Assembly: GCA_000165345.1 (NCBI GenBank)
Contig: CM000431.1
Span: 160,001 to 224,000 of the forward strand
Length of the DNA stretch: 64,000 bases
Reading direction: 5' to 3'
Made by a program: the position numbers and the translations under genes. Positions 13,488 through 17,009 of the stretch are shown here, one piece after another (positions within the stretch are counted from its first letter, which is position 1; each line of letters opens with the position of its first letter). The notes below the pieces were generated by a model. It was not told the origin of the DNA. It saw only the letters and a list, made by a program, of their open reading frames with translations, and did not search any database.

Positions 13488-16400
13488 ATGGATGTAATAG
13501 AAGCAGGAGATGTTGTGGAAAAGCCATCTCCAGATGTTTTTCGCTCAAGTAGGCAATTTTTGGACTCTGAGGTGAAGTTAATAGAAGAAATAAAACATAA
13601 TTTTTTGGATACAGTAGGTTATATGGAATTTCGAAAATTTAGCAGAAAACACCAGGGAGTATTTAGAGATGTTGCAAGGGCTTGGACTTTGATTTTGTTA
13701 GTACTTTGTGGATTTTTCTCAAATCTGCTATTTTTTTCTTCATGTCCAAATTTGGGAGATATAGCAGCACATGGGTTGTTTTACAAGGGATATAATTTGA
13801 TAATATTATGCGTTGAAATCGGAATGATAGTGACTACATCATTTTGGCTGCTAATGACTCAGTTCCAGACTGGAGTAGTTTACTCGTTTAGATTGAGCGT
13901 TTTATACACAGCTATTACATTTCTATTATTTATTTTGAGGACAACAATTTCAGATTCAGAAAACTCAACAATTCTACAAAAATGTGACTATATTTTGAGT
14001 AATGGAGAGGTGATCGTTTACAATATAATTCCGCTCATATATATTACGTTACAGTTCTTAATTTCTTTTATTTCATTTTTTTACTCAAAACTGAGACCAA
14101 TCATAGCTGTATATTACTTTAAGCATCCTTGGTTCCTCAAGTCTTGGAAATTTGTAAATATTGAGCCTGTAGAGTTAAAATTACTTTCTTTTGGAAAGAG
14201 GTTTGATGGGAGCAGAAATATTAGTCCAAGAAATACAAGTTCAAAGTATTGTGAAAAAAGCGAGTCAGAGGACAAGACGAGCTCTGAAGGTATGAAAGGA
14301 GGATATTCAAGCGATACAAAAATGTTTTGGGATACGGAAAGTGATAACCAGAATATCAGATTAGCTTCTGGTTATTTCATTGAGATTAAAAGGTTTAGTG
14401 TAAGAAAGCTACTGAAAAAGTTGAATCCGATAAGATTGGATTTGCTTTTAACTTTTAGAACAAGAAAGGATAGAGGTAGAAGACCAAATTCTTTGAAAAA
14501 CCAGGGATGCAGCATAAATAGTTGGTATTTGGGAGAAATTAATGAGGAAGGAAGGCCTCATGGTTTTGGAAGATGGAGGGAGGATGATTACTACGGCGAG
14601 ATTCTCGTTGGGTTTTGGAAGAATGGGCATCCTGTTGGACCATTTAAAACAAGAGAGTGTAGATCAGGGAGTGGCTTTATTTGTTTGAAGCTAGGATTCT
14701 GTCGAACAGAGGCAAATTTGACTCCTAATCTATATGGTTATGCAGATATTGAATGCAGTGTTTCTGGTCAATTCTTTAGAGGGTTTCCTTTATGCCATAT
14801 TTATCCGGCTCCGTCAATAGGAATGAATAGAAGTGGATCAATCTTTGCGAGAATTGGGGCTAAAGGAAAGGCAGCATTAGATGATACAACTCAAAAGGGC
14901 AAGAAAATGGTTGGTGCAGTGTTTAATAGTTCTTGGTTTAAGAAAATAAGGAAAAAGGACAAAGATAAGAAGACCGCATTAGAGAAGAAGGAGAGCATTT
15001 TAGATTCTAAAAAGGTGGTTAGGCTTAATTTAGATAATATTGAAGGTAATAGTGATAAGATGGAGTCAAATGAATTAAATAGTTTATCAATTGATATACC
15101 GTCAGGAAATGAGCAAAATTTAAAGGAAGTAGAACCCAAACTGTCATCAGGGATGTGTAAAAGTGAAATGAATTTAAGCTTACAGAAAAAAGGAGTTCAC
15201 ATGATCCGTAAAGTTAGACAAAAGCTAAGAAGGAACCAAAACAGACAGGACAAGGAGCGTGATTTGTCTCTTCTGTGGGTTTTCCAAAATTTATCCCCAC
15301 ACATTCCGATGTTTACAATCCACCCTAAGAATGAAGTCACTATTTTGGTTGATGCAGAAAGGGGTTTGTATATTGCCGGATACTTTCCAGTATCAGAAGT
15401 ATTACGTTATACAAAACAAACAGGAGCGAGGTTGGCTTTGAGCAACCAGGATCCTGAGAGTTTGCTAAGCGAAAATAACCTAAAGAGTACAATTTTGGGC
15501 CCGAATGATGCCATTAGTGGGCTTATTCCGTTCTCAAGCTCATTTTCGAGCTCCTCCATTATCAAAGCTTCTCAGTATCCTCTAAATAGGCCTCAAGATA
15601 ATAGGTACTTGGAGTCTGTTGAAGTTAGGGTAGTTGATAGATATTGCAATGATTCCGTCTTCTCAAAAGATGCTTTAGATGAAAACCAGGATAATACCGT
15701 ATACTACCCAGAGTTGGAAGTCAAGAATTGGATTCATAGCGATGGACTTCATGCGGCTGAGGCGCTGATATTTATTCATGGGTATAATAACACAATAATG
15801 GATGCTTTAAGGCAAGTTGGACAGATGATTGCTTTTGGAAACTTTCCCTCGTATATAAAACCTATGGTATTTTCTTGGCCATCAGGAAATTCCTTCTTAG
15901 AGTATTTCAAGGCTAGAAAGAGTGCAGAAAGTCCTCACACTCATAATTCACTTTACCAACTCATATTAGGGTTAAAGAATAGAGGAATTCGACATATCCA
16001 CATTATGACTCATTCAATGGGAACTAGATTATTCATCCAGTCGTTCCCTAAGCTTTTATCAGAGAATTTACTTGAAAGATGTGAACAGCATGATCATAGA
16101 TCAAGCATTGATCCTGGAAATTATTTGGGTCTTCGTCATTCTGAGACTCAGTTCGGAGACGAGATTAATCCAATTATTAATGAAAAGGTTCAAATAGTTT
16201 CAATGACTTTCTTGAATCCTGATTATTACTTGGATGACTTTATTAACAAAGCTTTCCCAATGTTAAGGCAATACTGTAATTTAATTACTATGTATGGAGA
16301 TAGCCAAGATGGTGCTCTAAAGTGGAGTGAAATCATTCAGGGTAGGAAAGCTCTCGGCTGCAACGTTTTTGGATTGCATTACGGGACTATTGGGAGCTTT

Positions 16401-17009
16401 AGTAAGAGAATGAAATCTCAAATCAACGATCTTGACCAATATAGAGCTTCTGATGTGGAACTAACCAGTGGCTTGAAGAAGACAGTTTCTACATCAAACA
16501 TGGCCGTCTATGGGGATGAAATCAACTTCTCTTCCAATCAGAAAATAGGAACAACAGGATTAAAATCGGATACGGAAAATCACCCTAATTCTGAGAATAG
16601 AGCTTCACAAGAATCAAAACCAAGAAATGATAGCGCATTATCTCTTATTTACCCTTCTAAGGTCCTAATTAACAGTTTCAACGCCTCTCAAAGTCCCAGG
16701 CAAGGTTCTCCAAGAGCAAGTAGTTCCGGAATTTTGGAGACTTCCAGTCCATATGCAAATAGACATACTCCTGAACAAAGATTCAACTATTTAGATATGG
16801 ATGTAATTGACCAGAGTTTCATTGAACAAAATGTTGGGACAATGCGTCATAATAACTGGAACTTAAACAGAGAAGTCATTGAGGATTTGAGGGAACTGGT
16901 GGTGAGCAGGAAAAGAGCATACCAGAGATCTACCAGGCTAGACAAACGAGAAGGTAATGTTTGGGTCTACAGAATTGCTCCTTCTTGTGTCACTTCCATT
17001 TTCGACTAG
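13488..17009 (+). CDS. Membrane-anchored protein with an N-terminal bundle of 4-5 TM helices, central MORN-like repeats and a C-terminal alpha/beta-hydrolase domain (DUF900/esterase-like, GHSMG nucleophile elbow).
   Basis: 1173-aa ORF. Hydrophobic helices lie at about aa 60-210. The MORN-like segment is YLGEINEEGRPHGFGRWREDDYYGEILVGFWKNGHPVGPF. The C-terminal block LIFIHGYNNTIMDAL...HIHIMTHSMGTRLF has an HGY start and a GxSxG (HSMGT) nucleophile elbow, characteristic of the DUF900/lipase-like alpha/beta-hydrolase fold. Confidence 0.6.
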   Translation: MDVIEAGDVVEKPSPDVFRSSRQFLDSEVKLIEEIKHNFLDTVGYMEFRKFSRKHQGVFRDVARAWTLILLVLCGFFSNLLFFSSCPNLGDIAAHGLFYKGYNLIILCVEIGMIVTTSFWLLMTQFQTGVVYSFRLSVLYTAITFLLFILRTTISDSENSTILQKCDYILSNGEVIVYNIIPLIYITLQFLISFISFFYSKLRPIIAVYYFKHPWFLKSWKFVNIEPVELKLLSFGKRFDGSRNISPRNTSSKYCEKSESEDKTSSEGMKGGYSSDTKMFWDTESDNQNIRLASGYFIEIKRFSVRKLLKKLNPIRLDLLLTFRTRKDRGRRPNSLKNQGCSINSWYLGEINEEGRPHGFGRWREDDYYGEILVGFWKNGHPVGPFKTRECRSGSGFICLKLGFCRTEANLTPNLYGYADIECSVSGQFFRGFPLCHIYPAPSIGMNRSGSIFARIGAKGKAALDDTTQKGKKMVGAVFNSSWFKKIRKKDKDKKTALEKKESILDSKKVVRLNLDNIEGNSDKMESNELNSLSIDIPSGNEQNLKEVEPKLSSGMCKSEMNLSLQKKGVHMIRKVRQKLRRNQNRQDKERDLSLLWVFQNLSPHIPMFTIHPKNEVTILVDAERGLYIAGYFPVSEVLRYTKQTGARLALSNQDPESLLSENNLKSTILGPNDAISGLIPFSSSFSSSSIIKASQYPLNRPQDNRYLESVEVRVVDRYCNDSVFSKDALDENQDNTVYYPELEVKNWIHSDGLHAAEALIFIHGYNNTIMDALRQVGQMIAFGNFPSYIKPMVFSWPSGNSFLEYFKARKSAESPHTHNSLYQLILGLKNRGIRHIHIMTHSMGTRLFIQSFPKLLSENLLERCEQHDHRSSIDPGNYLGLRHSETQFGDEINPIINEKVQIVSMTFLNPDYYLDDFINKAFPMLRQYCNLITMYGDSQDGALKWSEIIQGRKALGCNVFGLHYGTIGSFSKRMKSQINDLDQYRASDVELTSGLKKTVSTSNMAVYGDEINFSSNQKIGTTGLKSDTENHPNSENRASQESKPRNDSALSLIYPSKVLINSFNASQSPRQGSPRASSSGILETSSPYANRHTPEQRFNYLDMDVIDQSFIEQNVGTMRHNNWNLNREVIEDLRELVVSRKRAYQRSTRLDKREGNVWVYRIAPSCVTSIFD

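Follow-up and report, generated by a model that had tools for sequence, protein, structure and literature searches.

What does the long open reading frame (ORF) at 13488..17009 on the plus strand of this stretch encode, and is its architecture as unusual as it first appeared? The window analyzed here comprises 64,000 nucleotides of contig CM000431.1, and a first-pass annotation made from the letters alone had described the product of this ORF as a possible membrane-tethered lipid hydrolase in which MORN repeats sit between a membrane anchor and an alpha/beta hydrolase. We lean toward the view that the ORF encodes the single Cryptosporidium parvum member of the QRP1/PF3D7_0709900 group of polytopic membrane serine hydrolases, which would cleave lipid esters on the side of the membrane that faces the cytosol and would use a MORN-like module for access or regulation.

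The ORF is a single uninterrupted frame of 1173 codons (1173 amino acids plus a TAG stop), and its product matches C. parvum Iowa II EAK89202.1 (UniProt Q5CV20), annotated as "hypothetical protein," at every residue. Full-length orthologs with 58 to 96% identity are present in C. hominis, C. meleagridis, C. tyzzeri, C. ubiquitum, C. felis, C. xiaoi, C. ryanae, and C. muris, and variable low-complexity linkers separate the conserved blocks among them; the ORF is a genuine gene under selection and no chance frame. We infer from gene order and uniqueness that it is locus cgd3_590. The 685-amino-acid AMP-binding acyl-CoA synthetase at 29397..31454 (+) (PF00501, E = 4e-54, plus AMP-binding_C_3) fits CpACS1 (cgd3_640), the target of triacsin C; stepping back from it by tens, ORF by ORF, leads to cgd3_590, and the ORF is the sole family member found in C. 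parvum. The same count makes the next downstream ORF cgd3_600, the published dense-granule protein DG1. The contigs that hold the gene, of about 1.09 to 1.11 Mb, also agree in size with chromosome 3.

Is the four-part layout an oddity of this gene? The first-pass annotation had not recognized it as that of a characterized family and had proposed looking for the same architecture elsewhere. A profile built from the Cryptosporidium alignment and searched exhaustively against 1.84 billion representatives gave 2862 matches at E ≤ 1e-3 and 246 at E ≤ 1e-30. The best 150 non-Cryptosporidium representatives, mapped domain by domain by local hmmsearch, share a recurring order of three to four transmembrane (TM) helices, a module of about 100 residues (profile positions 339 to 437), the DUF900 core, a variable insert, and a C-terminal block of about 80 residues. 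At least three TM helices together with module, DUF900, and C-terminal block were found in 88 of these 150; in another 29, module, hydrolase, and C-terminal block are accompanied by no more than two TM helices, and many of these proteins, located on short contigs, look truncated at the N terminus. The hydrolase and the C-terminal block alone are present in 24. Because 88 of the 150 hold all four parts, the layout is the standard architecture of a large eukaryotic family rather than an oddity, with the MORN-like module as a family hallmark. The impression of an uncharacterized architecture has to be given up, all the more since Plasmodium members have been published and cgd3_590 is listed as an ortholog of one of them, PfQRP1 (PMC10224993, PMC11809919).

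In the Apicomplexa, members come from Besnoitia, Plasmodium (two paralog groups), Theileria, Cardiosporidium, the gregarine Blabericola, and Polyplicarium; outside them, from the chrompodellids Chromera and Vitrella and from the green alga Ostreobium. The stramenopile Triparma laevis (BRXW01000088.1, 5600..7776) has three consecutive gene calls on the same strand, of 104, 168, and 199 amino acids, the second of which consists of the module; the third, which holds DUF900, lies 282 bp downstream of this module-only call. Most simply, these calls would be one family gene split by annotation, in which case the architecture extends to stramenopiles. A partial fragment bearing the module was found in the fungus Linnemannia. 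The QRP1 paper reports evident orthologs only inside the Apicomplexa, and a family that reaches beyond this phylum is new with respect to those parts of the published descriptions that were available to us.

Hydrolase, membrane domain, and MORN-like module

Assignment of the C-terminal part to a DUF900-type alpha/beta hydrolase was confirmed by Pfam, where PF05990 matches the whole protein at amino acids 756 to 955 (15753..16352, plus strand, as are all features below unless stated otherwise) with E = 1.3e-22 and 80.9 bits, compared to a gathering score of 20.5, and aligns over profile positions 18 to 179 of 232. The score rises to 85.5 bits once a variable Ser/Asn-rich insertion of 129 residues (amino acids 967 to 1095; 16386..16772), which divides the hydrolase fold between the Asp strand and the His strand, is spliced out, and the model is then covered only at profile positions 18 to 181. 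A scan of the protein with NCBIfam gave no match. The nucleophile elbow had been given as GHSMG; the elbow is intact and the HSMGT string is correct, but the actual sequence is T841-H842-S843-M844-G845 (16008-16022, with Ser843 at 16014-16016).

Residue conservation was taken from domain-wise alignments of the best 150 non-Cryptosporidium family representatives and is given here as conserved over aligned residues. Around the elbow, Ser843 is present in 147/147, His842 in 146/147, and Gly845 in 145/146, and Gly765 of the H764-G765 oxyanion motif (15777-15782, inside the DUF900 core) is found in 146/146. Asp941, also inside the core (16308-16310), is conserved in 144/144 and Asp938 in 121/145. 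The C-terminal block (amino acids 1096 to 1173; 16773..17006), which is nearly invariant and present in almost all members, contributes Asp1105 (145/145) and the putative catalytic His1121 (16848-16850; 147/147). Because these columns stay conserved across the family representatives, the catalytic triad would be Ser843-Asp941-His1121. The expectation that a Ser, an Asp, and a His could be aligned was thus borne out, and the broader picture, in which a serine hydrolase is fixed to the membrane, keeps its predicted triad intact, and is separated from its anchor by a MORN-like element, is supported. Compared to other DUF900 proteins, the core fold and the elbow are alike, far above the Pfam threshold, whereas the His-bearing part is divergent and set off by the 129-residue insertion. 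Moreover, DUF900 proteins are described in a review as mainly bacterial, with at most one N-terminal helix or a lipoprotein signal (PMC11878206), while the four-TM domain and the MORN-like module are peculiar to the eukaryotic family.

The N-terminal anchor was likewise recovered, although with four helices rather than the "4-5" first proposed. Hydropathy (Kyte-Doolittle mean of ≥1.6 in a 19-residue window) places the TM domain at 13680..14084, with approximate bounds of amino acids 65 to 87 for TM1 (13680-13748), 103 to 124 for TM2 (13794-13859), 131 to 152 for TM3 (13878-13943), and 176 to 199 for TM4 (14013-14084). The preceding segment (amino acids 1 to 64; 13488..13679), predicted to be cytosolic, holds a basic juxtamembrane motif, M46/R49/R53/G57, that is invariant or nearly so in 37 diverse family members. 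Seven K/R residues stand immediately ahead of TM1 and five behind TM4, and the TM3-TM4 loop is acidic and carries an NST sequon; from this charge pattern (the positive-inside rule) and the even count of four helices, we infer an N-in/C-in topology that would place module and hydrolase in the cytosol. The TM domain (profile positions ~32 to 240) aligns with those of Besnoitia, Plasmodium, Vitrella, Chromera, Theileria orientalis, and Cardiosporidium, and is homologous to that of members in both apicomplexan clades described below and in the chrompodellids; a Pfam scan of amino acids 1 to 339 matched no family. A secreted lipase with a signal peptide was considered and rejected, as 64 hydrophilic residues precede TM1 and there is no N-terminal signal.

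How MORN-like is the element between the two domains? For amino acids 340 to 445 (14505..14822), AlphaFold2 with a 40-sequence family alignment gave a mean predicted local distance difference test (pLDDT) score of 90.4 and seven beta-strands, arranged as three consecutive hairpins (345-351/357-365, 371-378/381-390, and 396-408/411-426) and a terminal strand (435-440). G349, G359, G361, E371, G375, E422, G427, and P434 are invariant across the family. Hairpins 1 and 2, of ~26 and ~25 residues, carry the MORN-like signatures Y-x-G...G-x-G and G-x-W-x-x-G, and hairpin 3, of ~39 residues, is long and atypical for MORN; the canonical unit has 23 residues, made up of two 6-residue strands, a 5-residue loop, and a 6-residue linker (PMC7725318). 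In a Foldseek search of this model against the Protein Data Bank (PDB), nearly all of the top ~30 matches are MORN proteins (E of 0.04 to 1, TM-score about 0.45), including radial-spoke head proteins, MORN4, Tb/Tg/PfMORN1, and junctophilin-1/2. On the sequence side, Pfam did not report MORN for the whole protein even at E ≤ 10, and the excised segment scored 11.8 to 15 bits with MORN (PF02493), below the cutoff of 22.5. MORN is nonetheless the sole Pfam family that recurs among the family's modules (12/40 at E ≤ 1, best 0.0015); the module profile found no MORN protein among PDB sequences. The MORN repeats of the first-pass annotation therefore hold as a fold, but not as canonical, Pfam-grade repeats: the model describes a compact MORN-like unit with invariant residues of its own rather than a canonical MORN array. 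It differs from MORN-repeat proteins (MORN1, MORN4, junctophilins, and RSP1/RSP10) in its repeat lengths and in E371, E422, G427, and P434, which are specific to this family. The accompanying premise that MORN repeats mediate membrane or phospholipid association is itself weak, since a structural study of Tb/Tg/PfMORN1 saw no membrane or vesicle binding (PMC7725318). A lone module sequence matched PGAP1_2nd at E = 0.26, but this is noise, and a PGAP1-like glycosylphosphatidylinositol deacylase was rejected.

Module and hydrolase core are joined by a Lys/Ser/Asn-rich linker (amino acids 480 to 586; 14925..15245), which is variable and poorly conserved even inside Cryptosporidium, and by a conserved pre-hydrolase segment with predicted strands (amino acids 587 to 735; 15246..15692). 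The latter is common mainly to the PF3D7_0709900-type clade, and a Pfam scan of it gave no family match.

Relation to the two Plasmodium paralogs

If the C. parvum protein belongs to a family known from Plasmodium, which of the Plasmodium paralogs does it correspond to? PfQRP1 (PF3D7_1359900) has 2126 amino acids, four TM helices, and a C-terminal esterase/lipase-like domain with a Ser-Asp-His triad (PMC10224993), the residues of which lie close together in its AlphaFold model (PMC10224993, PMC11809919). It is dispensable in blood stages, and point mutations in it lead to low-level quinoxaline resistance (PMC10224993); D1829A or truncation gives 2- to 3-fold resistance, and in the AlphaFold model V673D/R676I, G1612V, and D1863Y are located near the triad (PMC11809919). 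Amplified PfATP2, a phospholipid flippase, was seen alongside, and this amplification is a further route to quinoxaline resistance (PMC11809919; see also PMC12588512). The second Plasmodium DUF900 protein, PF3D7_0709900, is rated essential in a table of PMC9464883. Both proteins have been published as "4 TM + alpha/beta hydrolase" (PMC10224993, PMC11809919, PMC3640944). With four TM helices at its N terminus and, at its C terminus, an alpha/beta hydrolase with Ser-Asp-His, cgd3_590 has the same layout and is a bona fide member of the QRP1/PF3D7_0709900 family. The top Plasmodium scores against the Cryptosporidium profile belong to P. relictum CRG98430.1 (E = 4e-107) and P. vinckei EUD72468.1 (E = 2.8e-105), while a QRP1-type protein of P. 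ovale matches with E = 1.2e-64 in four stretches; the Plasmodium matches each run over three to five collinear stretches.

The two groups of Plasmodium proteins can be told apart by a few features. The spacing from the catalytic Ser to the Asp is 207 in PfQRP1 (as published), 205 in the P. ovale-type group, 75 in the P. relictum/P. vinckei group, and 98 in C. parvum. At Asp+34, PfQRP1 has D (D1863) and the P. ovale-type group also has D, compared to L or I in the P. relictum/P. vinckei group and M in C. parvum. A V-x-x-R motif in the module begins at first TM +261 in PfQRP1 (V673) and at first TM +266 in the P. ovale-type group, and it is absent from the P. relictum/P. vinckei group and C. parvum. 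Finally, the motif that follows GSG in the module reads SLFVNTRVGF in the P. ovale-type group, GFMCIKIGY in the P. relictum/P. vinckei group, and GFICLKLGF in C. parvum. Because Ser-Asp spacing, Asp+34 residue, and V-x-x-R position agree with PfQRP1, the P. ovale-type group is QRP1. The P. relictum/P. vinckei group is then of the PF3D7_0709900 type by elimination rather than by direct sequence comparison.

C. parvum shares with QRP1 the four TM helices, the MORN-like module, the DUF900-type triad, the C-terminal block, and a Gly ten residues ahead of the Ser (G833, at 15984-15986, with the same offset from Ser as PfQRP1 G1612). It differs in that PfQRP1 is about twice as long, with long inserts, in an H-S-M-G elbow where the P. 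ovale ortholog has H-S-C-G, in I398/K401 at the position of the QRP1 V/R pair, and in the M at the position of QRP1 D1863. The PF3D7_0709900 side is closer: its published architecture matches that of C. parvum (PMC3640944), and the P. relictum/P. vinckei proteins align with Cryptosporidium through the TM domain and have a nearly identical module motif. PfQRP1 V673/R676 probably sit in strand 5 of the module, equivalent to I398 and K401 of the I398-C-L-K401 segment (14679..14690), and the family consensus at the position of K401 is Arg (86/131). As the two residues map to the module and have been published as near the triad, this suggests that the module packs against the active-site region. 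With respect to the accessible parts of the published descriptions, it is new that the MORN-like module is a conserved hallmark and that, of the four PfQRP1 resistance mutations known, two probably fall within it.

A neighbor-joining tree (378 conserved columns, 200 bootstraps) was built by a distance method in which QRP1 is a faster-evolving lineage. It recovers a QRP1 clade with 100% bootstrap, made up of the Plasmodium QRP1-type proteins, Theileria parva TpMuguga_02g02080, T. orientalis, and Cardiosporidium, with Cryptosporidium outside. Besnoitia joins the P. relictum/P. vinckei group with 98% bootstrap, and Cryptosporidium falls weakly on this side (21 to 47%). Hidden Markov models (HMMs) of the two clades score the C. 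parvum protein at 371 bits (QRP1 clade) and 551 bits (other clade), and the difference of +180 is one that true members also give when left out of the model in turn (+171 to +305). The non-QRP1 model is favored as well by Chromera, Vitrella, and Polyplicarium (+80 to +133), so this preference in part reflects QRP1 divergence or retention of ancestral states. Taken as a whole, these results set cgd3_590 apart from the strict QRP1 clade; more probably, it corresponds to PF3D7_0709900 or is co-orthologous to both paralogs. The closer resemblance of the Cryptosporidium gene to the paralog rated essential in Plasmodium than to QRP1 is likewise new, within the same portion of the published descriptions, and it matters when QRP1 genetics (dispensable, resistance modifier) are extrapolated to Cryptosporidium.

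One detail of the published PfQRP1 triad is worth recording. The catalytic His is given as H2047 of 2126, 79 residues from the C terminus (PMC11809919), whereas in the QRP1-type proteins of P. ovale and in C. parvum the invariant His is followed at a distance of 52 residues by the C-terminal end, and in the P. relictum/P. vinckei group and Besnoitia at a distance of 55. The P. ovale spacing predicts ~H2074 in P. falciparum, and the mismatch could come from a C-terminal extension of PfQRP1, from another His being meant, or from transposed digits.

Proposed mechanism and alternatives

How might such a protein work? In the reading toward which we lean, the conserved four-helix TM domain would anchor the protein with both ends in the cytosol, and the DUF900-type hydrolase would use Ser843, Asp941, and His1121 to hydrolyze an ester or thioester bond on the cytosolic side of the membrane, with the H764-G765 backbone serving as the oxyanion hole. 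The MORN-like module, beside the active site, would most likely serve substrate access or regulation rather than tether a second membrane. The most probable substrate class would be a membrane glycerophospholipid or another acyl lipid, cleaved by a phospholipase A- or lysophospholipase-type activity. That catalysis is real is argued by the invariance of the predicted triad. The guess of a lipid ester as substrate is based on the PfATP2 flippase link, on a weak resemblance to lipases and cutinases, and on archaeal cinquedea, for which phospholipase A activity was shown experimentally and of whose archaeal homologs 69% carry DUF900.

Several points weigh against this reading. Enzymatic activity has been shown for no member of the eukaryotic 4-TM DUF900 family, and the argument for a lipid substrate leans by analogy on an archaeal relative that is distant and on a genetic link that is indirect. 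The C-terminal His block alone gives no match in Pfam, and because the DUF900 model misses it even after splicing of the insert, this part of the protein is divergent from the mostly bacterial DUF900 seed. The full-length AlphaFold2 model, for which the alignment consisted of eight Cryptosporidium orthologs, has a mean pLDDT of only 32 and is unusable for triad geometry or for the packing of module and hydrolase; Foldseek matches of this poor model are weak and mostly to alpha/beta hydrolases (E ≥ 0.03), which is consistent but no evidence. When PDB sequences were searched with the protein, with the spliced hydrolase, and with the family profile, no solved structure matched significantly; there were only matches at E of 0.14 to 1 to TRPV1, ICMT, and CD20 in the TM region and to the elbow of pancreatic lipase. 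Finally, V673/R676 were mapped via the P. ovale ortholog (V-N-T-R) and residue spacing rather than via the PfQRP1 sequence.

Other activities of the same scaffold can be imagined. A protein deacylase or thioesterase would remove acyl groups such as palmitate from membrane proteins and use the MORN-like sheet as a protein recognition surface. Solved MORN repeats are indeed surfaces for protein interaction or dimerization and not membrane binders (PMC7725318), the MORN4/Myo3a and junctophilin/CaV1.1 complexes are among the fold matches of the module, and a catalytic domain predicted to be cytosolic and apposed to the membrane would fit; yet neither sequence nor fold links the protein to known acyl-protein thioesterases, the weak matches being cutinases and lipases, and there are no experimental hints, so that we regard this alternative as unlikely. 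Quite unlikely, in our judgment, is an esterase for small molecules or xenobiotics, in which soluble esters, amides, or drug-like molecules are cleaved and the anchor merely localizes the enzyme, comparable to PfPARE, which activates ester prodrugs. The QRP1 authors raise this possibility themselves, and the protection from quinoxalines by loss of QRP1 could mean that QRP1 converts them to a more active form. However, a triad, TM domain, and module that are retained from apicomplexans to green algae and stramenopiles imply an endogenous substrate, the coselected gene is a phospholipid flippase, and loss of QRP1 has no effect on one of the close analogues, compound 33.

The contact-site idea of the first-pass annotation would make the protein a junctophilin-like tether, with its TM helices in one membrane, its MORN repeats bound to the phospholipids of a second, and the lipase acting where the two meet. 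The fold matches of the module do include junctophilin-1/2, and a TM anchor combined with a MORN-like element recalls such a tether superficially, but the idea found no support and we consider it very unlikely: the module has about three hairpins, two of them MORN-like, whereas the matched junctophilin fragments are far longer (312 to 321 residues), TbMORN1 itself bound neither membranes nor vesicles (PMC7725318), the residues mapped to the module are reported near the triad, which suggests that the module packs onto the hydrolase instead of extending outward, and the N-terminal anchor stands just ahead of the module, with ~140 residues between them, many of which are conserved. A catalytically inert scaffold or pseudoenzyme would agree with the lack of measured activity and with a Plasmodium serine-hydrolase table in which PF3D7_0709900 and PF3D7_1359900 are catalogued by domain only. 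We find it hardly credible, given that Ser, Asp, His, and the oxyanion Gly are invariant in at least 144 diverged representatives and that D1829A in P. falciparum reproduces the effect of truncation.

Returning to the preferred reading of a cytosol-facing lipid-ester hydrolase, what was known already is the layout of four TM helices plus hydrolase and the orthology of cgd3_590, an uncharacterized protein from a family that is known but whose biochemistry is unexplored. What had been a "hypothetical protein" of C. parvum thereby becomes a defined member of the QRP1/PF3D7_0709900 family with named catalytic residues (Ser843, Asp941, and His1121). A bolder version, which we offer only tentatively and with the odds against it, holds that the module is an integral and so far undescribed catalytic part (a lid, recognition surface, or regulatory surface) of 4-TM DUF900 hydrolases throughout eukaryotes and the site at which V673D/R676I acts, and that the only Cryptosporidium copy corresponds to PF3D7_0709900, the paralog rated essential, rather than to the dispensable QRP1. 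If this were true, cgd3_590 would be a candidate essential phospholipid-remodeling enzyme alongside P4-ATPase flippases.

Neighboring genes and window composition

The CpACS1-like gene (29397..31454) places an enzyme that activates fatty acids some 12 kb downstream of what is putatively a lipid hydrolase, which is probably coincidental. A KaiC match in the neighbor upstream of 13488..17009 was dismissed as weak and below threshold. The 1440-amino-acid ORF at 17529..21851 (+), which by gene order is cgd3_600 and thus the published dense-granule protein CpDG1, has no Pfam match at E ≤ 0.001. Its likely true start is Met codon 12 (MKALFLAFLIIFIGG...), which gives a signal-peptide-like N terminus. 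The motif C-x(1-3)-G-x(1-3)-[LIV]-T-[GAQ]-[LIV] occurs in at least five copies that are 156 to 198 amino acids apart, and the ORF looks like a tandem array of an undescribed domain of ~160 to 180 amino acids.

Two divergent ORFs of ~490 amino acids at 2614..4089 (-) and 4602..6083 (+), which score 25.2 and 31.9 bits with MFS_1 against a gathering score of 33.4, are probably a pair of divergent major-facilitator transporters. The ORF at 44904..49664 (+) encodes an ABC transporter of 1586 amino acids (ABC_tran, E = 7e-19; ABC_membrane, E = 2e-10), in which a single nucleotide-binding domain and a single membrane domain were detected, both in the C-terminal half.

The GC content of the window, about 28 to 37%, and its long intron-free ORFs are typical of Cryptosporidium. 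Within 24001..30000, GC drops to 0.227 at 24 to 26 kb and to 0.190 at 28 to 30 kb, compared to about 0.30 to 0.37 elsewhere. The intervening 26 to 28 kb show strong negative GC and AT skew, and at 26598-27701 the ORFs of the two strands overlap, which suggests that the coding sequence there is of low complexity.

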